Below, in pieces: positions 386 to 24,894 of a DNA stretch of 32,000 nt (position 1 is the stretch's first letter; each line of letters opens with the position of its first letter). A program made the translations under genes and the position numbers. Source of the stretch: Halogeometricum borinquense DSM 11551 (GTDB lineage: Archaea > Halobacteriota > Halobacteria > Halobacteriales > Haloferacaceae); assembly GCF_000172995.2 (NCBI RefSeq), contig NC_014729.1, forward strand, positions 1,080,001-1,112,000, read 5' to 3'. The notes below the pieces were generated by a model that was not told the DNA's origin, did no database searches, and worked only from the letters and a program-made list of their open reading frames with translations.

Positions 386-2290
386 CTAATCCGAGTCGGC
401 GGCGGCCACGCTTTCGGTGTCGGAGTGGTCCGCACCGTCCCCACCAGAGTTATCTGTACTGTCAGTATCGCCAAGCTCGAAGCCGGACATCGACGCGTAC
501 AGTGACGCGTACGTGCCTTCGGCAGCGACTAACTCTTCGTGGGTGCCGTCTTCGACCATGCGCCCGTCAGCAACGGTGTAGATTCGGTCGGCGTCCACGA
601 CGCTTCCGAGTCGGTGTGTCACGACGACGAACACGCGGTTACGCGTCGCCTCACGGATGCTCCCGAGAACGGACTCCTCCATCCGCGCGTCGAGGTTACT
701 CGTTGCCTCGTCAAACACCACTACGTCCGCGTCTCGGAGGAGCGCGCGCGCGATGGCCACGCGCTGTTTTTGTCCGCCCGAGAGGCGTACGCCGTCCTCG
801 CCGAGAACGGTGTCGTATCCGTCCGACAACCCCTCCGCGAACGCTGTCACGCCCGCGTCGGCGCAGGCACGTTCGAACGCTGATTCCGAAGCCTCGGGCG
901 CGCTTGCAAGGACGTTGTTCCGAAGCGTATCGTCGAAGATGTACGGGTCCTGCCGGACGACAGCGAGACGGTCGCGCCAGTCGTCAACTCGAACAGTCGA
1001 GAGGTCGGTTCCGTTTACTCGAATCGTTCCCGTGTCGGGAGCGTACAGACGAGCGAGAAGCGAGACGATGGTTGACTTGCCCGCGCCCGACCCGCCGACG
1101 ATAGCAATGAATTCTCCGCGCTCAGCCCGGAGACTCACGTTCGAGACGCCTTGGTCGCCATCCGGATAGCGGAAGGAAACGCCGTCGAACGCGACCGATT
1201 CGACGGGTGCCGGTACGTCGGCGTCACCCCCGCGGACGGCCCGGGCAGCAGCCAGTTCGTCCAGTTCGCGGAGCGTCTCGACCAAGTGCGGAAGTTTGCC
1301 GTCGAGACCGTATAGTTGTGACTGAAGCGATGAGACACCGGGACCGAGACGGAGCATCGCAAAAAGCAGCAGGCCGACTGCGCCCAACGAGAGTGCCGCC
1401 CACGTCAACGCGAGATAGACGGCGACGAGAACGACGACGGCGGCGGCGAATCGGTGGAGATTCGAGACGATGGCCTGGTTGACGCGAAGGCCGACGACGG
1501 CGTCGATGTAATCGTCCAACGCGTCAGTGTAGCGTGTCGCGGCCACGTCGTCTAATCCGAACAGCCGCACGTCGCGGATGCCCTGTACGCCCGCCTGCGC
1601 GTGCGCTTGAATCTCCGTATTGGCCGCTGCGATGCTGCTTCCCGCCCCGTACGCAGACCCGACGACGGAGCGAACACCGACCGTAATGACACCGAGAAGA
1701 GCGGCGACAGCGGTCGTGAGGAGCGGGTCAACGGCGAGAGCGAGGATGAGATACGTAAAGACGAGCAACGTGCGTTCGACCACAGAGAGGACACTCGACA
1801 ACACCGTCGCCGGATAGTTCGACTGCGTGACAAGCGTGTTCAGCAGTTCGTCGGACCCGCGTTCGTCCACGTACGAGAGGTCCGCATCAAGGATGCCACG
1901 GAAGACACCCGTCTTGAGACTGCGGATATAGTCGGCGACGAGTTGCGCTTGCAGATAGCGGACGAACGTCGCCATCCCGAATCGGAGTCCGAGTGCGAGA
2001 GCCGCGCCGCCGAGAAGCGTCTCGAACGTGAACGGAACGCCCACAGCGCCGTACGCCGCCGCAAACCACGAGACGACGGTCTGGTCGGACGCCACAGTGA
2101 GCGATGTGCGCCCGGCTTCGACCAGCGGAAGCAGAAAGCTCAGTCCGACTCCCTCGAAGACAGCGACGACGAGGCTCAGTGCAACGACCCCGCCGAATCG
2201 TGTCGGGTCGTAGGAGATGACAGTCCGAAGTGCGGCGAGCTTCTCTCCGAGCGTCGCAGACGGTGCTTCCGAGGAACGTTCGTCGCTCAC
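386..2290 (-). CDS. ABC exporter with fused permease and ATPase domains (MsbA/McjD-like half transporter).
   Basis: 634 aa. The hydrophobic multi-helix N-terminal half begins near aa 33, so there is no N-terminal C39 peptidase domain. Walker A GGSGAGKST, signature LSGGQKQR, Walker B VVVFDEATS. The start at 2288-2290 is GTG. The C-terminal tail is acidic. Confidence 0.9.
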   Translation of the reverse strand: MSDERSSEAPSATLGEKLAALRTVISYDPTRFGGVVALSLVVAVFEGVGLSFLLPLVEAGRTSLTVASDQTVVSWFAAAYGAVGVPFTFETLLGGAALALGLRFGMATFVRYLQAQLVADYIRSLKTGVFRGILDADLSYVDERGSDELLNTLVTQSNYPATVLSSVLSVVERTLLVFTYLILALAVDPLLTTAVAALLGVITVGVRSVVGSAYGAGSSIAAANTEIQAHAQAGVQGIRDVRLFGLDDVAATRYTDALDDYIDAVVGLRVNQAIVSNLHRFAAAVVVLVAVYLALTWAALSLGAVGLLLFAMLRLGPGVSSLQSQLYGLDGKLPHLVETLRELDELAAARAVRGGDADVPAPVESVAFDGVSFRYPDGDQGVSNVSLRAERGEFIAIVGGSGAGKSTIVSLLARLYAPDTGTIRVNGTDLSTVRVDDWRDRLAVVRQDPYIFDDTLRNNVLASAPEASESAFERACADAGVTAFAEGLSDGYDTVLGEDGVRLSGGQKQRVAIARALLRDADVVVFDEATSNLDARMEESVLGSIREATRNRVFVVVTHRLGSVVDADRIYTVADGRMVEDGTHEELVAAEGTYASLYASMSGFELGDTDSTDNSGGDGADHSDTESVAAADSD

Positions 2291-2673
2291 CGGCGACCAC
2301 CCGGGCGGTGTGCCCGCACGGCATCTGTGTGGGTCACCAGTACGTTCATGCGAGAAAAGGCGTCCGAGAGGCGGTTAAGTATGGGTCGCATTACGGGCCC
2401 TAGCTGTTCGTTTCGGACGGCGGATTGGACGGTAACAAATAGCAAGTCAGACGAGGCGTGCCGAGCGGAGGAAATCAACAGTCGGAGAGGGACAAATAGA
2501 GGGTGCAGGCGAGGAGGACCGAATAAAGAGAGCAGGCAAGAGGACCGAATGGGGGAGCAACGGGATGAACCAACGGACGAGAATCAACGAGGGCAGTCAC
2601 CAGCGGAAATACAACAAACGAGGATTCTCGAGGATGACTCACCACTGCGAGTATCGATCCACCGACGAATGGG

Positions 2674-2781
2674 CTACGATTCGTACTGCTTCGGTGGGAT
2701 GCTCGCGTCGTAATCGTTGTAAGTCTGCGTCTGTTCGTGAACGGTTCCGTAGGTTTCGAGCGTCGGGCGGTCGTACGTCAT
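2674..2781 (-). CDS. Candidate RiPP precursor peptide, 35 aa: MTYDRPTLETYGTVHEQTQTYNDYDASIPPKQYES.
   Basis: It starts at an internal ATG (2779-2781) of track ORF 2674..2898 and ends at TAG 2674-2676. 27 of 35 codons end in G or C (hand count). Y3, P6, L8, G12 and T18 fit the lasso leader motif YxxPxLx3Gx5Tx exactly. The C-terminal residue is Ser. It lies between the ABC exporter and the GNAT/PqqD/kinase genes. An SD-like GAGGTG lies 15 nt upstream. Confidence 0.65.
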   Translation of the reverse strand: MTYDRPTLETYGTVHEQTQTYNDYDASIPPKQYES

Positions 2782-2856
2782 AGTTCGAGGTCTGGACACC
2801 TCACTGGATACCTGTCCGGTTTCGGTGTTAGTTACTCTCGCATGAACTGACAACCC

Positions 2857-2883
2857 ATATATCAGTTCAGACCATATACAATT
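2857..2883. promoter_or_regulatory. AT-rich divergent promoter block between the precursor ORF (minus) and the GNAT gene (plus), with two TATA-like elements.
   Basis: ATATAT at 2857-2862 and ATATACAATT at 2874-2883 sit in an otherwise GC-rich context. They lie about 76-100 nt from both divergent start codons, so both transcripts would carry 5' UTRs. Confidence 0.3.
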
Positions 2884-2966
2884 GTTCACAACCACCAAAT
2901 ACTGTTACCTTCGGGGTTAGCCGTGCCCATACTAGACGCGTTCTATCATCACAGTCTCAATAACCA

Positions 2967-4145
2967 ATGGCGTCTCAGCCGTCAGTTCCGGCAATGAGTC
3001 TCGCACGCCACTCGGAGACGGTCGAACTAGACGATCAAACCTATCTTGTCCGGCCGTTTCAGTCGGACGACGAAAGTGGTCTCCGTGGCGTCTACGAGTC
3101 GGTAAGTGGCCGGGATCCCGGACACGAGTGGTTCGAGACGATGTACGGCTCCGAGAGTCTATTCGAGGACGCACCCATCGTCGTCATCGAATTCGAGGGA
3201 GACATCGTCGGCATGCTCCCGTCAGTTGCGTACCGAGTTCGGGTCGGTGAGAAATCGGCTATCGGCCTGCTCGGACGCGACGTAATGGTTCACCCGGAAC
3301 ATCGCCGCCGTGGAGTGTTCACCGCGGCGACGAACGTCGCTCTCGGAGGATATCTCGACTATGGAGAGGCGACGTTCATCTTCGGCCACATGAACGAACA
3401 GTCTCGCCAAGCGTGCGAGGAGATGGGTTGGAACATCCCGTCGATGCAACCGCAGTTCATCCGGCCGCGGAACGTCCGCGACTTCGTCCGCACTCGGACG
3501 GGGCAAAATCGGAGTCTCCGCGGGGCGCTGACGGCGACAACGCTTGCGGGCAACACGCTCGTCCACGATGCCGTCCGACGCGAGCGCGGCCTCTGCCGTC
3601 CAACTGATACGCTCGACGTGCAACGCGTCGATGGCGTACCCGCAGACAGATTGACTCGACTCCACGAGACGGCCACCCCGGAGACTATTCATCCGATTTT
3701 CGACGTACAGACGATTCGAGCGCACTTTTCGGACCCTGATTTCACCGGGCTTCGGACGTACGTCGCCGCGCGCGGCGGTTCGGACGTGGCGGCTCTCGTC
3801 GTCTCCGAGCGGCGGTGGCACCGAACACGCTGGCATTCAATCGTCCACGTCGCTCCGCTCTCCGGTGGCAAGACGCGCAAGCGCGCACTCGCCGCGCTTC
3901 TCGAACGCGCTCTGACGGACAAAAAGGGAAGTGACAGCGCTACCTCCGCCGACGCTTATCGCGTCGCGGTTCCGTTCCCGTCGGACCTCCTCCGGTCGTT
4001 CGGCTTCCTCTCGGACCGGACGTTCCCGATGTCGCGGCTCGAACCGCCGCGACTCTCACTCGGGTACCGCGTCATCAACGACGGACACGGGATTCGTGCG
4101 GCGCTCGCCGACGACAGTCACCATCTCTGGCACGTGGCGATGTGA
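2967..4145 (+). CDS. Large GNAT-family N-acetyltransferase: an N-terminal GNAT domain plus about 200 aa of uncharacterised C-terminal sequence.
   Basis: 392 aa. GNAT motif-A-like segment LLGRDVMVHPEHRRRGVFTAATNVAL...HMNEQSRQACEEMGW. ATG at 2967; an alternative ATG at 2994 is possible. Confidence 0.75.
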   Translation: MASQPSVPAMSLARHSETVELDDQTYLVRPFQSDDESGLRGVYESVSGRDPGHEWFETMYGSESLFEDAPIVVIEFEGDIVGMLPSVAYRVRVGEKSAIGLLGRDVMVHPEHRRRGVFTAATNVALGGYLDYGEATFIFGHMNEQSRQACEEMGWNIPSMQPQFIRPRNVRDFVRTRTGQNRSLRGALTATTLAGNTLVHDAVRRERGLCRPTDTLDVQRVDGVPADRLTRLHETATPETIHPIFDVQTIRAHFSDPDFTGLRTYVAARGGSDVAALVVSERRWHRTRWHSIVHVAPLSGGKTRKRALAALLERALTDKKGSDSATSADAYRVAVPFPSDLLRSFGFLSDRTFPMSRLEPPRLSLGYRVINDGHGIRAALADDSHHLWHVAM

Positions 4146-4261
4146 GTCGCCGCATCGGTTCGAGGCAACAATGAGCCAGAGAAAGCAGGGACAGATGAGA
4201 GACGGTCTCAGAGGAACTGAATACCGCCCGCCCCTGAACCGAAATCGGTCGTTCGGGGTGG

Positions 4262-4552
4262 TTACGCCGTTTCCGTGACTTCGGCCAGCCCGGCGTCAAC
4301 GAGGGTTTCGACGTACTCGCGTACGTCGGCCGCCGCCACTTCCGACTCGATATCGTACTCCTCCTCGATGGCGGCCGCAACGGCCTCGACCGTCTGTGGT
4401 TCGTCGATGAGTTCGAAAATCCGCGTTCCGACCGGGTTCATGCCGTGGTACAGTCCGGTGTCGAGGTTTAACAGGAGTCGTTCGCCACCCACGTCGGCGG
4501 CAACGACATCGGCGGACGCAACTACCGTTTTCTCGGGTGCAATGGCTGTCAT
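4262..4552 (-). CDS. PqqD-family protein (RiPP recognition element, lasso B1-like peptide chaperone).
   Basis: About 96 aa from ATG 4552; the track ORF starts at GTG 4576. The sequence ...GERLLLNLDTGLYHGMNPVGTRIFELIDEPQTVEAVAAAIEEEYDIE...VREYVETLVDAGL is a typical PqqD winged-helix pattern. Confidence 0.8.
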   Translation of the reverse strand: MTAIAPEKTVVASADVVAADVGGERLLLNLDTGLYHGMNPVGTRIFELIDEPQTVEAVAAAIEEEYDIESEVAAADVREYVETLVDAGLAEVTETA

Positions 4553-4645
4553 AGTGAGTAGAACGGGCGGTTGCACGATAGTTACTCACCGCGAACCAGT
4601 TGTTAGCCGATGGAAACCGAGTCAGCGACTCGCTACGTTCCTCGC

Positions 4646-5905
4646 CTAGCGGGGTTCGACTCGTCGCCGAAGCGCTTTGACAGCAAGGCGTGCTGGGCGG
4701 GTGACACGGTAGAGGCCGTGTAGGGAGTCTGGAAGCGAGACGGCCGCGTAGTCGGCCTGTTGCGGGACGAACGCCAGCCGGCACAGTGTCAGCACCTGCT
4801 GGCGGCGAGTGTCACACAACTGCAGTTCGTACCGCGTCCGCCGCCGCCGTCCGCGTTCGCCGTACGCGGCCGTTTCAGGATTCGATGCGACGAACCCCTG
4901 TGCGTCGATGACGACGCGACGAACGTTCGAATCCGCGCGGGCGTCGGCGAGTATCTCTGCTGGAACGGGCGCGTCGGCCGTCTCAGCCGCGAGCAACAGA
5001 CAGGCATGGAGGATGCGGCGTCGGTTGGCGCGCGCTGCACGCGCGCGGAGTCGGTCCCAGTCGATGTCGTTCTCAGAGAGGAACGCCGCGACGTCTACTA
5101 CCCAACCGAGGCGATTCCAGTAGTGTTTCGCGCCGTGGCGTGCGAGGACGAGAACCGTGTCCTCGTTCGAGAACGTCGGCACCGGGCGGCCGCCGACGAG
5201 TACCTCGGTTCGACGCTCCCACGCCGTCTCGAACGTCAACCACGACGGTCTGAGGTCGGTCCCGAGTCGCCAACGGAGTTCGACAGCGACGCCGACGGAC
5301 GGCGGCCGTCGGGTTGCCACAGTTCTCTCGGGGGTGTCCTCGGAAGGTCGGAAGTACGTGCGCTCGGCAGCGCGTGAGACAAGACTCTCTGCGTCTGTAA
5401 CTGCCGTTCCGTTCTCGGACCACGGGTTGTAGCCGAGTGATTCGAGGACGGCGCAGGCCTCAGGCACGTCTCCGGGTGGGACGAACAAGTCGAGGTCCGA
5501 GAAATCTCGGCGTGACAGGTCGCCATAGGCCGATACGGCGAGAACCGGGCCTTTGTAGACCAGACAACGGAGTCCGGCGTCGGCGAACGCGGACAGGACG
5601 CGGTGGAGTTCAGCGACGAACGAGAGGTTTCGGACACCCGTGGCACGGCACCGCTCTCTCGCGCGCGATTCAAACGCGGCGGGCACGTCGGCGTCGGTGA
5701 GGTGCGATGCGACCAGTGGTCCAACGCCGAGGTGATGTGCGGCCGTCAGTACCTCGTCCGCCTCGACTTCGGGTGCAAGGCGAGATATCGCCGTTTGCGC
5801 TGTTTCGTCGAGTGTCGGCCGCGCCAGCGCAGTCGCCAGCGCCACGGCGTCGTCGTCAGTGTCTGCCCTTTCGTGACCCTTGCGCGCGGCGGATGTGGCG
5901 CTCAC
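4646..5905 (-). CDS. Nucleotidyltransferase-family protein (PF14907-like 'uncharacterised nucleotidyltransferase').
   Basis: The motif VYKGPVLAVSAYGDLSRRDFSDLDLFVPPGD is a typical NTase G..DxD-type segment. I propose the start at GTG 5903-5905, which overlaps the kinase TGA stop (5902-5904) as GTGA. The track's longer ORF (to 6010) would overlap the kinase by 109 nt. Confidence 0.7.
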   Translation of the reverse strand: MSATSAARKGHERADTDDDAVALATALARPTLDETAQTAISRLAPEVEADEVLTAAHHLGVGPLVASHLTDADVPAAFESRARERCRATGVRNLSFVAELHRVLSAFADAGLRCLVYKGPVLAVSAYGDLSRRDFSDLDLFVPPGDVPEACAVLESLGYNPWSENGTAVTDAESLVSRAAERTYFRPSEDTPERTVATRRPPSVGVAVELRWRLGTDLRPSWLTFETAWERRTEVLVGGRPVPTFSNEDTVLVLARHGAKHYWNRLGWVVDVAAFLSENDIDWDRLRARAARANRRRILHACLLLAAETADAPVPAEILADARADSNVRRVVIDAQGFVASNPETAAYGERGRRRRTRYELQLCDTRRQQVLTLCRLAFVPQQADYAAVSLPDSLHGLYRVTRPARLAVKALRRRVEPR

Positions 5906-6840
5906 GAACCGACCTCCTGTTCGATACGGGAGACCACGTCCGGAAGCGCGTCGAACCGTCGAGGACGCGTTAGCGTTGCTACGGGGACCGACTCGACGAC
6001 AGAGAGACACCGGTCTACGGCGAGTATCGCCTCATCGCGGCGCTGTTGCGTGCCGACTGTGTAGGCGTTCCGCCCGAGTTCCGCGACGGCGGCGACGGAC
6101 GGAAGCGGGGTCACTGTCACGTCGTCGCCATCAACGAGGCGATAAACTGCCGCGAGCGGTACTGGATCGGAGTCTACATCGGCGGTCCGGTAGAACCGTT
6201 CGTCGGGACGAGAAGCAGTTGGCGTATTCTCACCGCCGTCAGTGACCGGGACGAGTCCACCGCCGAGCGTGGCCGCCGCGTCGTCGTGGAGTTTGATGGA
6301 CGCGAATCCGGGTTGGACGACGGGGCCGTCGTCGGTGAATCGGATGGCCGCCACGTCGTCGCCGAGCGCTCGGTGCCCGGCGGCGGCGAACGCGCCCGCG
6401 GTCGTAGATTTTCCCGCACCGGACTCACCGACGAACGCGACGGCACGACCGTCAACGGCGACGACGCTCCCGTGCAAGACGAGGTGGCCGCGTTGGTGCA
6501 AAAGGAAGTTGAACGCGGGGCCGAGAACCGTCCAGCGGACGTCTCTCTCGGTAGCGTCGGGCGCGGGGTCCACGACGATTTCGCGCCCTTGACTAACAGT
6601 AATGCGACAGGCGTCGTAAAGGAGGATGAACTCCTCGGGTGTCTCGAACGTTACGGCGGGGCCGTCGTCGGGGGTTTCTCCGTCGAACGGCACGGTTCCG
6701 ACGCGGACAAATACGTCGGCGTCGCCCTCAGCAGATTCGGTGACGACAGTTTCCGGGAGTTCCGGAAACGTAAGCGTCGAGGCAACGTCGAGACCGAACG
6801 CGCGGTATCGAAAGCGGCCTCGGGAGTCGGTACGCGTCAT
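5902..6840 (-). CDS. HPr kinase/phosphorylase-like P-loop kinase (HprK-related, lasso-cluster 'K'-type).
   Basis: 312 aa. LHGSVVAVDGRAVAFVGESGAGKSTTA matches the HprK C-terminal domain P-loop context. ATG at 6838-6840. Confidence 0.8.
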   Translation of the reverse strand: MTRTDSRGRFRYRAFGLDVASTLTFPELPETVVTESAEGDADVFVRVGTVPFDGETPDDGPAVTFETPEEFILLYDACRITVSQGREIVVDPAPDATERDVRWTVLGPAFNFLLHQRGHLVLHGSVVAVDGRAVAFVGESGAGKSTTAGAFAAAGHRALGDDVAAIRFTDDGPVVQPGFASIKLHDDAAATLGGGLVPVTDGGENTPTASRPDERFYRTADVDSDPVPLAAVYRLVDGDDVTVTPLPSVAAVAELGRNAYTVGTQQRRDEAILAVDRCLSVVESVPVATLTRPRRFDALPDVVSRIEQEVGS

Positions 6841-6864
6841 GGAAAACAGACGGAGACGTTCGTC

Positions 6865-6876
6865 AATAAGTATAGA
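6865..6876 (-). promoter_or_regulatory. TATA box for the kinase-NTase-PqqD operon (leaderless transcript).
   Basis: The minus strand reads TCTATACTTATT, centred about 30 nt upstream of the kinase ATG (6840). Confidence 0.5.
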
Positions 6877-7148
6877 GCGCGTTACGCGTCAAAACCAGCC
6901 GTTAGCCGTCAACAATCGATTCGGGAACTCCCTCACCGTGTGAGGTGACAAACACCGGTGCGGGAGCGCCCGTGACTACTCGTCGTCCATCGTGAGCTGA
7001 CGACGACCCTCGTATCGTCTACGTCTGTTTGTCTACGTTCCGTACGTTTCGGTCGGAGGGCGGTCGTCCATGCTCGGGGGAGTTCCCCATTGCCGAGATA
7101 GCCGTCGAAACTGTTAGTTACTCGGCGCTGTCCTCATATTGGCGCGTC

Positions 7149-7298
7149 CTAACTGCGGCGAGATTCGACCGGAATGAACCAATGCTTGGCAATATCTACC
7201 GCATAACCGTTGCGTCGCAGCCGTTCAATTTCGCCGGACAACGAGCGGATATCCGAAATGATTCGGATATGTGTCAGTTCAGTATCCTCTACTATCAT
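7149..7298 (-). CDS. Small hypothetical ORF (49 aa, MIVEDTELTHIRIISDIRSLSGEIERLRRNGYAVDIAKHWFIPVESRRS) in an AT-rich gap. It may be a gene remnant.
   Basis: Hand translation gives ATG 7296-7298 and TAG 7149-7151. The sequence looks like a plausible amphipathic protein, but codon third positions are AT-rich, unlike the neighbouring genes. Confidence 0.25.
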   Translation of the reverse strand: MIVEDTELTHIRIISDIRSLSGEIERLRRNGYAVDIAKHWFIPVESRRS

Positions 7299-7447
7299 AG
7301 CCTTCTCAGAGTATTCTCATCATCTGTATTTGGAGATTTAGCGGCGTTTGCTGGTAGAATGGCGTTTGAACTCTAGATATCTGCGTTCGCTAGCAATAAT
7401 ATTTCCAACACGCTCTAGTTCTCTGGTATGATATCTGGGACCAAGGG

Positions 7448-7455
7448 TTATTTTT
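7448..7455 (+). promoter_or_regulatory. TATA box for the 7477 gene (leaderless).
   Basis: TTATTTTT is centred about 26 nt upstream of ATG 7477. Confidence 0.45.
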
Positions 7456-7476
7456 GTCGGCTGCTGTGGTGCCCGT

Positions 7477-7863
7477 ATGGGTATCGCACATCTAGTTGAT
7501 CTCCTCCGGTCAGAGCTGCACGAGGACTTGCGGTGCTGCGTGGAGTATGCGGGTGAGGAGGTTCAACCACATTATCTGCGGTCCGACGTGGACCCAGCTA
7601 CTGCGCGCGAACACGCGCATCTCCTGCGACGGTTCTACATCGGTCAAGAGTCCGTCCGACGTCACGAGACGAATCCGTCCGGTCCGGGCAGCCTGCGCGG
7701 GTCCGTCCACTACTTCGAGGAACTAGTCGCCATCATCGTCCCCTTGGGCACGGACACCACTATCGGTGTGTTCCTCGACGGGGATTCGGCGGTGATTCCC
7801 GAACCACGCCTCTCCCAGTTGTCGGAAGAATGGGCAATCGAAGCGTCCGACTGCGTCCGCTGA
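7477..7863 (+). CDS. Hypothetical protein (128 aa, acidic, haloarchaeal type).
   Basis: Clean ATG ORF with a TATA box at -26. I recognise no family with confidence. Confidence 0.55.
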   Translation: MGIAHLVDLLRSELHEDLRCCVEYAGEEVQPHYLRSDVDPATAREHAHLLRRFYIGQESVRRHETNPSGPGSLRGSVHYFEELVAIIVPLGTDTTIGVFLDGDSAVIPEPRLSQLSEEWAIEASDCVR

Positions 7864-15871: not shown

Positions 15872-15983
15872 CGCCGGAGGTACGTGGTCAGGCGAAAAGA
15901 CCCTTCGGGAGCGTCCCGGCCTGCCGTGTTTGGGAGCGTCCCGCCTCGACGTGGTTTCCCTTCGACTGACGCTCTCGACCCGT

Positions 15984-17129
15984 TCAGTCGAGGACGCCGC
16001 GAGCGATGACTTCCTTTTGAATTTCGCTCGTTCCCTCGTAGATGGTCGTGATCTTCGAGTCGCGGTACATCCGCTCTACCTCGAAGTCCGTCGTGTAGCC
16101 GTATCCGCCGTGTATCTGGACCGCTTCGTTGGTTACGTCCACGGCCGCCTCGCTGGCGAAGTACTTGGCCATCGACGCCGCGATGCGCGGGTCCTCGCCC
16201 GCGTCGTCCTGCCGTGCGGCCTCGCGGACCATCAGGCGGGAGGCGTGGATTTGCGTCGCCATCTCGGAGAACTTGTGCCGGACGGCTTGGATGTCGGAAA
16301 TCGGGCCGCCGAACTGTTCTCGGTCGTGGGCGTACTCGCGCGCCTCGTCAAACGCTGACTGCGCGAGGCCGACCGCCTGCGCGGCGATTCCCATCCGCCC
16401 GCCGGTGAGAATGCGGAACGCCGCAGAGAGACCCTTCCCCTCCTCGGTGAGTCGGTTCTCCGCCGGAATGTGAACGTCGTCGAAGATGAGCGAGGTCGTG
16501 TCGGAAGCGCGGAGACCGAGTTTGTGTTCCTTCTTTCCGACTTCGATGCCCGCGTCCTTGGGAACGAGGAACTGCGTGACCGACGAGGGGTCGTCGGGAT
16601 CCGTCTTGGCGAACAGAATACAGACATCGCCGCGCTGGCCGTTCGTTATCCACTGTTTCTTGCCGTTTATCACGTACTCGTCGCCCTCACGGCGTGCGAC
16701 AGTAGACATCTCTGCGGGGTTCGATCCGGCGTCAGGTTCCGACAGTGCGAACATCCCGACGGGCCGACCGCGAGCCATCTCGGGCAACCACGCCTCTTTC
16801 TGTTCGTCGCTCCCGAATTTGGCGATACATGAGGTGGCGAGACAGTGTACCGACAGGGCAGTCGCCACGGCAAGTTGGCCGTAGGCGACCTGTTCGTTGA
16901 CGACGGTGTACGTCATCCGGTCGGCGTCGAAGCCACCGTACTCCTCGGGGACAGTCAGGCCCGTCAGATCGAGTTCAGCGAGGCCGTCCCAGACATCCTC
17001 GGGGAACGATTCCGTCTCGTCCGCCTCGCGCGCCGTCGGACGAATCTCCTCGACGGCAAACTCTCGAACTACGTCGCGAATCGCCCGTTGCTCGTCGGTG
17101 AGTGCCGAACCGGCGTCTGCAATTTCCAT
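15984..17129 (-). CDS. Acyl-CoA dehydrogenase.
   Basis: 381 aa with the typical ACAD architecture and motifs (LSEPDAGSN, ...IHGGYGYT..., IYEGTSEIQ). Confidence 0.93.
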   Translation of the reverse strand: MEIADAGSALTDEQRAIRDVVREFAVEEIRPTAREADETESFPEDVWDGLAELDLTGLTVPEEYGGFDADRMTYTVVNEQVAYGQLAVATALSVHCLATSCIAKFGSDEQKEAWLPEMARGRPVGMFALSEPDAGSNPAEMSTVARREGDEYVINGKKQWITNGQRGDVCILFAKTDPDDPSSVTQFLVPKDAGIEVGKKEHKLGLRASDTTSLIFDDVHIPAENRLTEEGKGLSAAFRILTGGRMGIAAQAVGLAQSAFDEAREYAHDREQFGGPISDIQAVRHKFSEMATQIHASRLMVREAARQDDAGEDPRIAASMAKYFASEAAVDVTNEAVQIHGGYGYTTDFEVERMYRDSKITTIYEGTSEIQKEVIARGVLD

Positions 17130-19880: not shown

Positions 19881-19965
19881 TGCGTGGGACCGGATTTGAA
19901 CCGGCGGACTCCTACGAGACAGCGCCCTCAACGCTGCGCCGTTGGCCTGGCTTGGCTACCCACGC
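19881..19965 (-). tRNA. tRNA-Leu, anticodon GAG (type II, long variable arm). CCA is not encoded.
   Basis: The reverse complement folds by hand. Acceptor stem GCGTGGG/CCCACGC with discriminator A. Anticodon stem CAGCG/CGCTG with loop TTGAGGG. Variable arm CTC-GTAG-GAG. T arm GCCGG-TTCAAAT-CCGGT. Confidence 0.9.
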
Positions 19966-23340: not shown

Positions 23341-24894
23341 TCAGTCGTCAGCCGGAAGCGTCTCGTCGCTGATAGACGGGCGTTCGACCGACCGGTCGGT
23401 CGGTTCGCCATCGATATCGTAGGGGTACTCGCTCGTGACGCACCCGAGACAAAGGTCCGCACGAGACTCGCCAAGAGCGGCCGCGATGGCATCGATAGAG
23501 AGGTACGAGAGACTGTCCGCACCGATATCGTCGCGTATCTCCTCTGTGGTCTTGTCGGAGGCGATGAGTTCCTCGCGGGTCGCCATGTCGATACCCATGT
23601 AGCAAGGTGCGATGATTGGCGGCGCACCGATACGAACGTGAACCTCCTCGGCACCGGCGTCGCGGACGAGTTGGACGAGTTGGCGCGAGGTGGTGCCGCG
23701 GACGATGCTGTCGTCGATGATGGTGACAGAGCGGCCCTCGATGGTACTTTTGATGGGGTTGAGTTTCAGGCGAACGGCGCGCTCGCGTTCGTCCTGCGTC
23801 GGCATGATGAACGTTCGACCGACGTAGCGGTTCTTCATCAGCCCCTCCGCGAACTCGACGCTATCGTCGCTTTCACGGGGGTCACCGTCTGCCGTGGTTT
23901 CGTTGGCTGCTTCGGCGTAGCCGGTGGCGAACGCGCGTCCGGAATCGGGGACTGGCATCACCACGTCGGACTCGACACCTGACTCCTCCCAGAGCTTCCG
24001 ACCGAGGTCACGACGCGCCTCGTAGACGAGCGTGTCGTCGATGACGGAATCCGGGCGGGCGAAGTAGACGTGTTCGAAAAAGCAGTGGGCGGTGTGCTCC
24101 TGTTCGACGAGTTGGTAGGAGTCGAAGCCGGAGCCGTCGGATTCGAGGACGACGAGTTCACCCGGTCGCACGTCGCGGACGAGGTCTCCGTCGAGGGTAT
24201 CGATGGCCGCAGATTCGCTTGCGACGACGTAGCCGTCGTCAAGTTTTCCGATGCAGAGCGGTCGATTCCCCTGCGGGTCGCGCACCGCAAGCACCGTCTC
24301 GTCGTGCATGATGGTGAGCGAGTACGACCCGTGAATGCGTCCCATCGTATGCTTGACCGCGCGGACGAGGTCCTCTTCGAGCAGATTCCGCGCAAGGTCG
24401 TGGGCGATGACTTCGGTGTCGCCGTCGGACGTGAACGCGTGTCCGAGATCTTCCAGTTCGTCGCGTATCTCGTCGGCGTTGACGAGGTTGCCGTTGTGTG
24501 CGAGGCCGAGTGATCCCGATTTGAACGACACCGAGAACGGTTGGGCACAACAGGAGTCGAGACCGCCGGACGTGGGATAGCGGACGTGCCCGATACCTGT
24601 CGTTCCGGTCAACGAGTCGAGGTCGGACTCACCGAACACGTCACCGACGAGTCCCGTCTCGACGTGGCTGTGCTGTTGGAACCCGTCGTGGGTGACGATA
24701 CCTGCCGACTCCTGTCCGCGATGTTGGAGCGCGTACAGAGAGTAGTACAGCGGTCGCGCGGCGGCGCGGTCCGCGAGCGCGACGCCGACGACGCCGCATT
24801 TCTCGGTCGGTCCCGAGAGGTCGTCGGCCGTCGGTTGCTGTCGGCCCGCGTCGCGTCCGGGTGTGGGGGTCTGAGCGTCCCGCCCGTCTGACAT
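23341..24894 (-). CDS. purF: Amidophosphoribosyltransferase.
   Basis: 517 aa. N-terminal nucleophile context CGVVGV, a glutamine amidotransferase class II domain, and a PRTase motif VTIIDDSIVRGTT. Confidence 0.95.
   Translation of the reverse strand: MSDGRDAQTPTPGRDAGRQQPTADDLSGPTEKCGVVGVALADRAAARPLYYSLYALQHRGQESAGIVTHDGFQQHSHVETGLVGDVFGESDLDSLTGTTGIGHVRYPTSGGLDSCCAQPFSVSFKSGSLGLAHNGNLVNADEIRDELEDLGHAFTSDGDTEVIAHDLARNLLEEDLVRAVKHTMGRIHGSYSLTIMHDETVLAVRDPQGNRPLCIGKLDDGYVVASESAAIDTLDGDLVRDVRPGELVVLESDGSGFDSYQLVEQEHTAHCFFEHVYFARPDSVIDDTLVYEARRDLGRKLWEESGVESDVVMPVPDSGRAFATGYAEAANETTADGDPRESDDSVEFAEGLMKNRYVGRTFIMPTQDERERAVRLKLNPIKSTIEGRSVTIIDDSIVRGTTSRQLVQLVRDAGAEEVHVRIGAPPIIAPCYMGIDMATREELIASDKTTEEIRDDIGADSLSYLSIDAIAAALGESRADLCLGCVTSEYPYDIDGEPTDRSVERPSISDETLPADD

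Follow-up and report, generated by a model that had tools for sequence, protein, structure and literature searches.

Linear polyphosphorylated peptides (LPPs) are encoded by lppA-K-B-S-D-N gene clusters, which, as described, occur in Bacillota only (Popov et al., Nat Commun, May 2026; PMC13381572). These clusters lack a cyclase; their kinase, LppK, polyphosphorylates the internal residue Ser3 and did not accept Tyr, and LppN showed no activity in the single LPP reconstitution (PMC13381572). Pseudomycoidin is acted on by PsmK and PsmN, the latter being required for hexose addition to phospho-pseudomycoidin. PadeK, PsmK and LppK are the closest characterized homologs of the kinase discussed below, and they leave stable phosphates on the peptide.

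Here, we have analyzed a 32-kb stretch of DNA from Halogeometricum borinquense (the window), part of which had been read in a first-pass annotation as a ribosomal-peptide (RiPP) cassette of lasso-type recognition and tailoring parts. Profile, structure and leader-motif evidence bears this reading out. Taken as a whole, the region is best explained as a functional RiPP gene cluster of a lasso-derived, cyclase-less haloarchaeal family, an explanation that we consider probable. Most likely, the cluster would make a small, linear, phosphate-decorated peptide by means of lasso-derived recognition and tailoring enzymes.

Gene layout and encoded enzymes

All six ORFs of the first-pass annotation were found at the coordinates given there, and its two cluster boundaries could also be identified: an IF-2B-family ORF at 14-340 (Pfam search) and a low-GC intergenic region of 636 bp at 6841-7476 (GC 0.50 versus ∼0.63-0.66). 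The latter lies upstream of the kinase operon and is presumed to be a promoter region as well as a cluster boundary; GC content was 0.50 in 7001-7500 versus 0.60-0.68 in the flanks, and no precursor-like ORF or Rfam match was found in the gap. The six ORFs were intact and of equal length in at least four H. borinquense strains. Between two H. borinquense strains, whose synonymous divergence was ∼7%, pN/pS was ∼0.22 over 164 substitutions (0.13-0.22 for the individual kinase, nucleotidyltransferase, RRE and ABC genes; 0.42 for the GNAT gene). As judged from these sequences, the cluster is under purifying selection.

The kinase gene (5902-6840, minus strand) encodes a lasso-kinase-like P-loop protein of 312 aa with an HprK/PEPCK fold. 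Its match to PF07475 was below the gathering cut-off (3.5e-6, 27.1 bits; cut-off 33.3), and it scored under the equivalog cut-offs of TIGR04352 (39.1 bits; cut-off 200) and the ScmC NCBIfam model (24 bits; cut-off 125) and under the curated cut-off of TIGR04355. Despite the weak PF07475 match, the HPr-kinase-like assignment stands on the basis of a precomputed Pfam match to PF27840 ('ScmC'), the family profile, the AlphaFold model and invariant motifs. The family profile matched the HprK/P structure 1jb1 (1.8e-10) over LHG...GxSGxGKS...GHxLxxDD, and the AF2 model (pLDDT 88.8) matched PEPCK (E 1e-7) and HprK/P (E 3e-5). LH[AG]S, GxSGxGKS and DD were invariant in the family alignment, and the catalytic motifs are intact in H. 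borinquense (H123, G138xSGxGKS and D161-D162). The kinase belongs to the HprK/P-PEPCK P-loop superfamily, with the fold, Walker A, catalytic His and Asp-Asp all present. Over 95% of its length, it is 33% identical to a Paenibacillus kinase from a canonical paeninodin-type C-A-K-B1-D-B2 cluster.

The PF14907 nucleotidyltransferase-fold enzyme of the PsmN/LppN type (NTase; 4646-5905, minus strand, 419 aa) has a GTG start that overlaps the kinase stop by 4 nt, in agreement with the gene calls of other strains, and is translationally coupled to the kinase. It passed the PF14907 cut-off (1.9e-60, 204.9 bits; cut-off 31.2), has K118-G119, R133 and D137-x-D139 as invariant residues and carries the Pol-beta-type motif hG[GS]...DxD. 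Structural relatives of the AF2 model (pLDDT 88.4) were ANT(2'')-Ia (Foldseek matches 5cfs and 4xje), LnuA and FKRP; PsmN has been reported with the same ANT(2'')-like templates and the same DxD motif. Kinase and NTase were always adjacent in haloarchaeal loci, with overlapping reading frames in many of them.

The discrete RiPP recognition element (RRE), a PqqD-family, lasso-B1-like protein of 96 aa (4262-4552, minus strand), is predicted by homology to bind the leader. It matched PF05402 (1.9e-18), and its top NCBIfam match, lasso_PqqD_Bac (2.9e-16), was below the cut-off, the lasso_PqqD models carrying 'exception' cut-offs under which the RRE scores; it was likewise below the cut-off of TIGR04353 (26.1 bits; cut-off 35). 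Ranking of its solved relatives placed TbiB1 at the top (1.8e-10), followed by PbaB1 (9x90, 6e-8) and LppB (9x8z, 1e-4). The GNAT acyltransferase (2967-4145, plus strand, 392 aa) has an N-terminal Acetyltransf_9 domain (PF13527, 5e-9) and ∼260 further residues; an alternative start at 2994, which is the one called in other strains, yields 383 aa. The stretch VHP[DE]HRRRG[LV][FY]TA is conserved in its orthologs from the Halobellus, Salinigranum, L078 and L161 clusters, and the gene is missing from many haloarchaeal relatives. The earlier nucleotidyltransferase, PqqD and GNAT assignments agree with these profile matches. The MsbA/HepA-like ABC exporter (386-2290, minus strand, 634 aa) has permease and ATPase fused (PF00664, 1e-10; PF00005, 1e-30) and lacks a C39 peptidase domain; in agreement with the first-pass annotation, no peptidase domain was found in it by Pfam search. 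Its top NCBIfam matches, HepA_fam_ABC and MsbA, were all below equivalog cut-offs, and orthologs (1e-144 to 1e-216) were found in all haloarchaeal loci of sufficient context.

The set of kinase, NTase, RRE and ABC exporter is kept in Haloarcula, Halobellus, Halorubrum, Natronomonas, Salinigranum and metagenomic contigs. The gene order A-K-N-D-B1-B2 of the L078 and Salinigranum loci is rearranged in H. borinquense; a more distant relative, with a precursor of 82% identity, has the same GNAT-precursor-ABC arrangement.

Precursor peptide and candidate modification site

The precursor gene (2674-2781, minus strand) encodes 35 aa, with leader codons at 2725-2781, core codons at 2677-2724 and the stop at 2674-2676. 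The 19-residue leader, MTYDRPTLETYGTVHEQTQ, is followed by a core of 16 aa, TYNDYDASIPPKQYES. The leader is an exact match to the lasso leader motif YxxPxLx3Gx5Tx, its motif residues being Y3 (-17), P6 (-14), L8 (-12), G12 (-8) and T18 (-2); a weak match of the precursor to NF033528 lasso_cyano was also observed (E 0.012). In haloarchaeal loci, 47 small ORFs homologous to the precursor adjoin kinases, and the motif is conserved across the 30 distinct sequences among them; precursors of this family are 30-43 aa long. A precursor-like ORF adjoins the kinase in 40 of the 41 haloarchaeal loci (the exception is a 3.5-kb contig), and the small ORF noted at first pass is thus a recurrent neighbor of the orthologous cassettes. 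In a second H. borinquense strain, the core was identical and a single change was present at a variable leader position. Its sequence identifies the 35-aa ORF as a genuine precursor.

Core positions 7-9 are A, S and I, ring-forming Asp/Glu being absent, and no conserved Asp/Glu was found at these positions among ∼30 haloarchaeal cores. All seven clade-A cores contain a [G/A]-S-x-P motif, whose Ser corresponds to Ser8 in H. borinquense. The C-termini of these seven cores vary (S, A, L, E, R, F and E), and the core of the closest relative ends in ...QYDA, that is, in Ala and not Ser. Because the Ser of [G/A]-S-x-P is invariant and the C-terminal Ser is not conserved, the internal Ser8 is the likely candidate target of the kinase, and the previous description of the product as C-terminally modified could not be maintained. 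Several cores of the sister clade (Haloarcula, Halobellus and others) are without any Ser/Thr (for example, WWYDDGYGQWD), so that the kinase family cannot be uniformly a Ser kinase and the chemistry could differ from that of LPPs. The cores of this clade B conserve D-x-x-Y, and those of clade A [DE]..[GA]S with an acid-to-hydroxyl spacing that varies from i+2 to i+4. Asp and Tyr are the only conserved modifiable residues in Haloarcula/Halobellus cores (D-[DG]-G-Y-G). On the more speculative reading of an independent archaeal RiPP class, considered below, the HprK-fold enzyme would therefore have to act there on Tyr or Asp; to our knowledge, no Tyr- or Asp-directed activity has been described for this fold.

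Cyclase, leader peptidase and proposed pathway

Consistent with the first-pass annotation, neither an Asn-synthase-like cyclase nor the transglutaminase-like leader peptidase B2 (PF13471/NF033537; best tblastn E = 0.5) was found in the window, and both were absent from the 10 kb to each side of the cluster in three other H. borinquense strains. The only weak cyclase match in the window, at 23341-24894, was PurF. No lasso cyclase was detected in the 41 haloarchaeal loci (670 kb), including those with clustered B2, when one archaeal and one actinobacterial lasso cyclase were used as queries. The single Asn-synthase among these loci, from Halobellus ordinarius, was rejected as a lasso cyclase: it keeps the MCG nucleophile, scores 480 with TIGR01536 (cut-off 267) and does not pass the lasso cyclase model. 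A linear product, as had been suggested, is almost certain, since the core is without Asp/Glu at 7-9 and a cyclase is absent from all the haloarchaeal relatives.

Nearly all related haloarchaeal loci carry B2 (NF033537, 86 bits; cut-off 33), and a genuine lasso B2 is found in the next-closest complete clusters, those of L078 and Salinigranum rubrum; a second lineage (L080) is likewise without B2 beside the RRE. Searches of limited sensitivity revealed no Halogeometricum protein among the 76 B2 homologs found and no Halogeometricum B2 on plasmids, and neither the six cluster genes nor neighboring ones encode an SpI/SipW-like peptidase (LppS). Because nearly all relatives have B2 and the H. borinquense leader keeps Thr at -2, comparison of the loci indicates that B2 absence is a secondary, lineage-specific loss. 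The lack of a leader peptidase can hence no longer be regarded as a design feature, and the description of the pathway as self-contained becomes doubtful.

In the pathway that we propose, the PqqD-type RRE would bind the 35-aa precursor through leader residues Tyr-17, Pro-14 and Leu-12, as homology and the motif suggest, and would hand it to the HprK-fold kinase, which, by homology with PadeK, PsmK and LppK, would phosphorylate a core hydroxyl, possibly several times. The site would most likely be Ser8 of the clade-invariant [G/A]-S-x-P. By analogy with PsmN, the PF14907 enzyme would put a further group on the phosphorylated peptide; the GNAT may perhaps acylate the amine of the new N-terminus or that of Lys12, and the MsbA-like ABC pump would carry the linear product out. 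In nearly all relatives, the lasso B2 cysteine protease would cut the leader off after Thr-2-x. With the clustered B2 lost, the H. borinquense leader would be removed by an unlinked protease or retained.

It is very improbable that the locus is part of a split canonical lasso cluster, in which C and B2 are encoded elsewhere in the genome and a threaded lasso peptide is then phosphorylated. The leader, of a perfect lasso type that includes Thr at -2, and the proximity of the RRE to lasso B1 proteins would agree with such an arrangement, and B1-B2-C clusters are known from archaea (pHALXA01 of Halopiger xanaduensis carries one, for example). However, Ala, Ser and Ile occupy core positions 7-9, the ring-forming acid is unconserved in ∼30 haloarchaeal cores, none of the 41 loci has a cyclase even where B2 is present, and neither gene lies within 10 kb in the three other strains; the absence of Halogeometricum from the 76 B2 homologs and from plasmids, albeit in searches limited in sensitivity, points in the same direction. 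The rearranged, B2-less cluster might instead be a decaying remnant that yields no mature product and whose genes are heading to pseudogenization, as the presence of B2 in nearly all relatives and the departure from the A-K-N-D-B1-B2 order of L078 and Salinigranum could suggest. This is unlikely, given that the six ORFs are intact and of the same length in at least four strains with intact catalytic motifs, that pN/pS is ∼0.22 over 164 substitutions and the core identical between strains, that GNAT-precursor-ABC is kept in a distant relative with an 82% identical precursor, and that the L080 lineage also lacks B2 beside the RRE.

There is also some, rather small, chance that phosphorylation or adenylylation by the kinase-like and NTase-like enzymes serves to activate a residue and leaves no stable phosphate, which would make this a RiPP class distinct from LPPs. 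Such chemistry could lead to modification of Tyr or Asp, to dehydration, or to an ester or lactone that joins the conserved acidic and hydroxyl residues. Both core clades conserve an acid near a hydroxyl (D-x-x-Y in B and [DE]..[GA]S in A), Ser/Thr are missing from several clade-B cores whereas LppK did not accept Tyr, and the two enzymes are always adjacent with frames overlapping in many loci. On the other hand, the i+2 to i+4 spacing in clade A argues against a defined ring, PadeK, PsmK and LppK leave stable phosphates, and the cluster has no lyase or ATP-grasp partner. More broadly, we tentatively raise the possibility, which we regard as doubtful, that the haloarchaeal kinase-NTase pair represents an independent, archaeal-centered RiPP class, in which lasso machinery minus the cyclase has evolved in parallel to LPPs toward chemistry beyond Ser phosphorylation. 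If so, the H. borinquense lineage would mature its peptide without a dedicated leader peptidase.

Relationship to described systems

With regard to canonical lasso clusters, the leader motif and a B1-type RRE are present in H. borinquense, and B2, cyclase C and Asp/Glu at 7-9 are absent. The paeninodin and pseudomycoidin systems (PadeK, PsmK, PsmN) resemble it in their homologous kinase and NTase, B1-type RRE, ABC pump and lasso leader; however, the H. borinquense cluster is without cyclase, ring-forming acid and B2, and its modification site is probably internal, whereas theirs is a C-terminal Ser. In HPr-rel-A (TIGR04352/TIGR04353) and SynChlorMet (ScmC/ScmD) cassettes, a PqqD-family RRE likewise accompanies an HprK-like P-loop protein. 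The HPr-rel-A families named in the first-pass annotation do exist, but the H. borinquense proteins fall far short of their equivalog cut-offs, and the radical-SAM partners of the SCM cassette are absent from this cluster.

The preferred reading, a linear phosphate-decorated peptide, brings the cluster closest to LPPs. Both have an HprK-like kinase, a PF14907 NTP transferase, a discrete RRE and an MsbA-like exporter, and no macrolactam cyclase; both leaders carry a Y-x-x-P-x-[L/V] RRE-binding motif, and in each case the predicted product is a linear peptide whose modified residue is an internal Ser close to the core N-terminus. The differences concern several features. LPPs use a leader peptidase of the SpI/SipW type and the haloarchaeal family a lasso B2, whereas the H. 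borinquense cluster has neither. The LPP motif YxxPxVLxHQxIxFETxxS does not occur in the H. borinquense leader, with only the YxxPxL part in common; beyond it, the leader continues as the lasso-type ETYGxVxExTx, in which -8 is Gly and -2 is Thr. Precursors are 35-200 aa in LPPs versus 30-43 aa in haloarchaea (the core here being 16 aa), the RRE sequence resembles those of TbiB1 and PbaB1 more closely than that of LppB, and the H. borinquense cluster has a GNAT and an archaeal host. The concept is no longer unprecedented, as the same enzyme set has been published for the LPPs of Bacillota (PMC13381572), and the H. borinquense cluster is most likely their undescribed archaeal counterpart and functional analogue.

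The gene cluster and its enzymes

All six open reading frames (ORFs) listed by the first-pass annotation could be found at their positions in the window: an ABC exporter (386-2290, minus strand), a 35-aa ORF (2674-2781, minus strand), a GNAT (2967-4145, plus strand), a PqqD-type RRE protein (4262-4552, minus strand), a PF14907 nucleotidyltransferase (NTase; 4646-5905, minus strand) and a kinase (5902-6840, minus strand), whose stop overlaps the NTase start by 4 nt. Gene calls made independently for three further strains matched these models, the 35-aa ORF included. The kinase ORF differed by one residue from the NCBI H. borinquense protein, and the window was 99.4% identical to assembly GCA_004150395.1 (locus L001) across 15.9 kb. 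The apparent truncation of the L001 ABC gene (a 450-aa call) is an artefact of a 100-N scaffold gap (15903-16002 of that locus), which also gives unrelated context downstream of the gene. As previously proposed, the cluster ends at an IF-2B-family gene on one side and at a 636-bp low-GC gap on the other. Just across this gap from the kinase lies a gene for a 128-aa DUF7522 protein (7477-7863, plus strand; PF24366 in a precomputed table, no match in the local Pfam copy); its position was kept in all H. borinquense strains and not in other genera, and thus it is probably outside the cluster. The remainder of the window carries housekeeping genes, including tRNA-Leu(GAG) (19881-19965, minus strand) and a PurF-type amidophosphoribosyltransferase (23341-24894, minus strand). 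No Rfam family reached its gathering score in the entire window, and neither Rfam nor tRNA scans gave anything relevant to the cluster locus.

Pfam assignments were clear for the NTase (PF14907, 1.9e-60), the RRE (PF05402, 1.9e-18), the GNAT (PF13527, 5e-9) and the exporter (PF00664 with PF00005). For the kinase, PF07475 remained below its gathering score (27.1 versus 33.3 bits) and TIGR04352 far below its cut-off (39 versus 200 bits), so these two models did not bear out the proposed assignment, which was settled instead by four other, independent lines drawn from sequence and modelling that predict an HprK/PEPCK-fold kinase. The protein bears the newer Pfam signature PF27840 ('ScmC'), and a profile of its family (21 members) matched HprK/P crystal structures (1.8e-10) across LHG...GxSGxGKS...GHxLxxDD. 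Its AlphaFold model (pLDDT 88.8) resembled the PEP carboxykinase and HprK/P folds, and the family showed no variation at H123, at D161-D162 or in the Walker A loop. Beyond these four lines, the protein was homologous over its full length (33% identity, coverage 95%) to the kinase of a canonical paeninodin-type cluster in Paenibacillus (gene order cyclase, precursor, kinase, B1-type RRE, ABC pump D, B2 leader peptidase). The NTase model (pLDDT 88.4) had a Pol-beta-type core closest to ANT(2'')-Ia, LnuA and FKRP, with invariant K-G and D137-x-D139; for PsmN, from the pseudomycoidin pathway, the same structural templates and DxD motif have been reported (PMC6993621). The best solved relatives of the RRE were TbiB1 (1.8e-10), PbaB1 (6e-8) and LppB (1e-4). 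PDB sequence searches with the NTase and the GNAT returned nothing useful.

Precursor peptides and their core motifs

The 35-aa ORF reads MTYDRPTLETYGTVHEQTQ (leader) followed by TYNDYDASIPPKQYES (core), and its residues 1-19 exactly fit the lasso leader consensus YxxPxLx3Gx5Tx (Tyr-17, Pro-14, Leu-12, Gly-8, Thr-2). Calculated masses are 1890.839 ([M+H]+; 945.923 for [M+2H]2+) for the unmodified core and 4140.854 (monoisotopic) for the whole 35-mer. To examine its relatives, 41 haloarchaeal loci with kinase orthologues were gathered by genome, metagenome and exact-protein look-ups, spanning Haloarcula, Halobellus, Halorubrum, Natronomonas, Salinigranum, further H. borinquense strains and metagenomic contigs. 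An archaeal nine-sequence kinase alignment was used to retrieve related loci; an H. borinquense-clade alignment found none among metagenomic contigs. A six-frame motif scan of 38 loci identified 47 small ORFs (30 distinct sequences) whose leaders fit M-x-Y-[DE]-x-P-x-[LV]-E-T-Y-G-x-[VI]-x-x-x-[TS]-x; the majority are located 140-550 bp upstream of the kinase gene. Loci from Salinigranum and from additional H. borinquense strains, which joined the set afterwards, contained precursor ORFs as well, and only one locus, a 3.5-kb contig, lacked one. These ORFs dispose of the suggestion that orthologous cassettes might never carry an adjacent small ORF, and on sequence grounds the 35-aa ORF is a real precursor. 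Searching 1.84 billion representative proteins with this peptide gave three matches, two of them spurious repeat proteins. In many loci there are two or three precursor genes, whose leaders are nearly the same and whose cores differ, and some of the copies are 3-8 kb away from the enzyme genes (for example, L005:3778-3888, L006:1220-1327, L010:6239-6367, L011:8221-8337 and L083:1069-1771).

Two sister clades of cores could be distinguished. The seven H. borinquense-type cores (clade A: TYNDYDASIPPKQYES, TYDDYPGSVPPKQYDA, SEYEASYPPQEVNL, VEYIGSEPPLTYE, LVEGSAPPEVR, GGDYNGSEPTYF and VYDNGSYPVKVE) all contain an acidic residue followed by [G/A]-S-x-P, and therefore Ser8 is the sole invariant hydroxyl residue. 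Their C-terminal residues are S, A, L, E, R, F and E, so that phosphorylation at a C-terminal Ser, proposed by analogy with paeninodin, found no support from conservation of that residue. Modification is probably at the internal Ser8 instead, in parallel with the Bacillota linear polyphosphorylated peptides (LPPs), whose kinase LppK polyphosphorylates an internal Ser3 of its core (PMC13381572). Clade B cores, from Haloarcula, Halobellus, Halorubrum and Natronomonas (for example, ORFs L002:9669-9767, L012:9534-9626, L011:1309-1407 and L005:3778-3888), have the common motif x3-D-[DG]-G-Y-[GD], as in WWDHDDGYGKWS, the core of a Haloarcula cluster with the gene order A-B1-B2-K-N-D, and in DSYDGGYGKNDVLR. 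Several are entirely free of Ser and Thr (WWYDDGYGQWD, WWHDDGYGKWD, ELMDGKYGDRVA and RGHDGGYGKNGGEILD), and hence their HprK-fold kinase homologue would have to act on Tyr or Asp, or have some other activity; a pure Ser-kinase model leaves these cores unexplained.

Leader peptidase, cyclase and the lasso alternative

The absence of a leader peptidase had been regarded as part of a self-contained design, which did not hold when relatives were compared. A lasso B2 is encoded in Haloarcula, Halobellus, Halorubrum, Natronomonas, Salinigranum and L078, the closest long metagenomic contig (kinase 64% identical to that of the window); these proteins scored 86 bits against NF033537 (cut-off 33) and kept the catalytic Cys and His. 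Neither B2 nor a remnant was present in the window or within 10 kb in other H. borinquense strains, and B2 was likewise missing beside the RRE in the L080 lineage. Searches elsewhere in H. borinquense (protein database and plasmids) found none, by a word-seeded method that missed even the Haloarcula B2 proteins. Thr-2 of the leader is the B2 recognition residue, and the H. borinquense leader still has it. Judged from these sequences, the lack of a clustered B2 is a secondary loss.

The cluster itself appears not to be decaying. All six ORFs were intact and of equal length in four strains, and against a strain at about 7% synonymous divergence pN/pS was 0.13-0.22 for the kinase, NTase, RRE and ABC genes, 0.42 for the GNAT and 0.22 overall (substitutions relative to the near-identical GCA_004150395.1 were too few to inform). 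In the same comparison the core peptide was identical and the sole precursor change was T7A, at a variable leader position; the GNAT, precursor and ABC arrangement was also kept in a more distant relative. In Salinigranum rubrum (L155:3726-6290) the GNAT is apparently duplicated or split into 395-aa and 280-aa ORFs, and the C-terminal half of the longer copy fails to align with orthologues, which suggests a frameshift or pseudogene.

Alternatively, the locus might be part of a split canonical lasso cluster with its cyclase encoded elsewhere. We built a cyclase HMM from bona fide lasso cyclases adjoining bacterial kinase homologues (reference L038:7887-9746; PF00733 2.4e-45, top NCBIfam match the lasso cyclase model), and used the Halopiger xanaduensis pHALXA01 cyclase, which is without the Cys1 nucleophile, and one actinobacterial cyclase as tblastn queries. 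Across 670 kb of haloarchaeal loci, both the HMM and the tblastn searches came up without a cyclase. By contrast, many of the bacterial kinase homologues (below about 35% identity) do have one in the retrieved flank. In addition, core positions 7-9 are Ala-Ser-Ile in H. borinquense, and no ring-forming acid is conserved there family-wide; by themselves, these cores speak strongly against a lasso. Given cyclase-free loci and such cores, a split lasso cluster is very unlikely.

Two candidate cyclases were rejected. The weak HMM match at window 23341-24894 is the PurF gene (GATase and Pribosyltran domains). The Asn synthase of Halobellus ordinarius (L006:5559-7493, minus strand) fails the lasso cyclase model, and is not a lasso cyclase because it keeps the MCGIAG nucleophile, passes TIGR01536 (480 versus 267 bits) and shares no more than 27% identity with the Halopiger cyclase, which has no such Cys. 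This glutamine-hydrolysing enzyme is encoded within the cluster, with the precursors on one side and the ABC gene on the other. The Halobellus marinus locus (L005), syntenic in all other respects, does not have this gene, which could serve peptide amidation or be an unrelated insertion. On the Halopiger plasmid itself (L156; NC_015658.1 22874-25552 plus flanks), a PqqD-B2-AsnB-like operon has an AsnB homologue without Cys1, hence lasso-cyclase-like. Close by are a precursor (MSGNKDSSQYSPPELTEYGSIESVTEQVNKEGVASDQWSENTPLLGSIQPAPT) and genes for a flippase, a sulfatase-like protein and a member of the nucleotidyltransferase family. Although no Asp/Glu at core positions 7-9 is obvious, this is probably a true archaeal cluster of the lasso type.

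Proposed pathway and comparison with known systems

We consider it reasonably likely that the RRE would guide the kinase to (poly)phosphorylate an internal core Ser, after which the PF14907 enzyme would decorate the peptide further, with GNAT acylation as an optional step and export as the last; the individual chemical steps are held with less confidence than the scheme as a whole. Thus, the linear, lasso-derived product of the original proposal stands, on the cyclase-free loci and the lasso leader, whereas its C-terminal modification and self-contained design are not supported. To our knowledge, very few archaeal RiPPs have been characterised, and this family would be the first phosphorylated lasso-derived one from Archaea. 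Its roughly 30 natural precursors, with [G/A]SxP and D[DG]GY[GD] core clades, form a substrate panel suited to questions of the role of PF14907 enzymes and of Tyr targeting by HprK-fold kinases, and the Ser-free cores pose a concrete biochemical puzzle. Since H. borinquense can be grown in culture and its relative Haloferax volcanii is amenable to genetics, these predictions can be tested directly.

In antiSMASH-based genome surveys the Haloarcula version, with its B1, B2 and kinase, has been flagged as 'RRE-containing' and left unassigned (PMC10093198), and the literature searched contained no published analysis of it. In Acidimicrobiales MAGs (L053:7462-13190 and L037), an ABC gene (minus strand), PqqD, B2, kinase, precursor (MEKKSYTTPKVAVLGTVKDLTR|GNEWGGSGRRPS), a fatty-acid-hydroxylase-like gene and a PF14907 NTase occur together, and in L053 the 10 kb retrieved to either side showed no cyclase. 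Therefore, B2-type cyclase-less clusters extend beyond archaea.

The closest known system is that of the Bacillota LPPs. Besides an HprK-like kinase and a discrete RRE, their clusters encode an NTP transferase, a leader peptidase of the SpI/SipW type and an MsbA-like pump; they lack a cyclase, and the linear peptide that they produce bears polyphosphate on one Ser (Popov et al., Nat Commun, May 2026, PMC13381572). The H. borinquense cluster is predicted to work in the same way, but it has neither the extended leader motif nor the SpI peptidase, both of which are defining for LPPs, and its RRE is nearer to lasso B1 proteins than to LppB. The cyclase-less archaeal variant probably arose by independent cyclase loss. 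Lasso pathways would then have been 'linearised' more than once, each time losing the cyclase and retaining RRE, kinase, NTase and pump: with the lasso B2 retained in haloarchaea and apparently Acidimicrobiales, and with an SpI peptidase in Bacillota. The LPP family was stated to be restricted to Bacillota (PMC13381572); the haloarchaeal family contradicts such a restriction of linear phosphopeptides and carries a just-described RiPP class into Archaea, where the H. borinquense cluster is best described as a B2-type (here B2-less) LPP variant.
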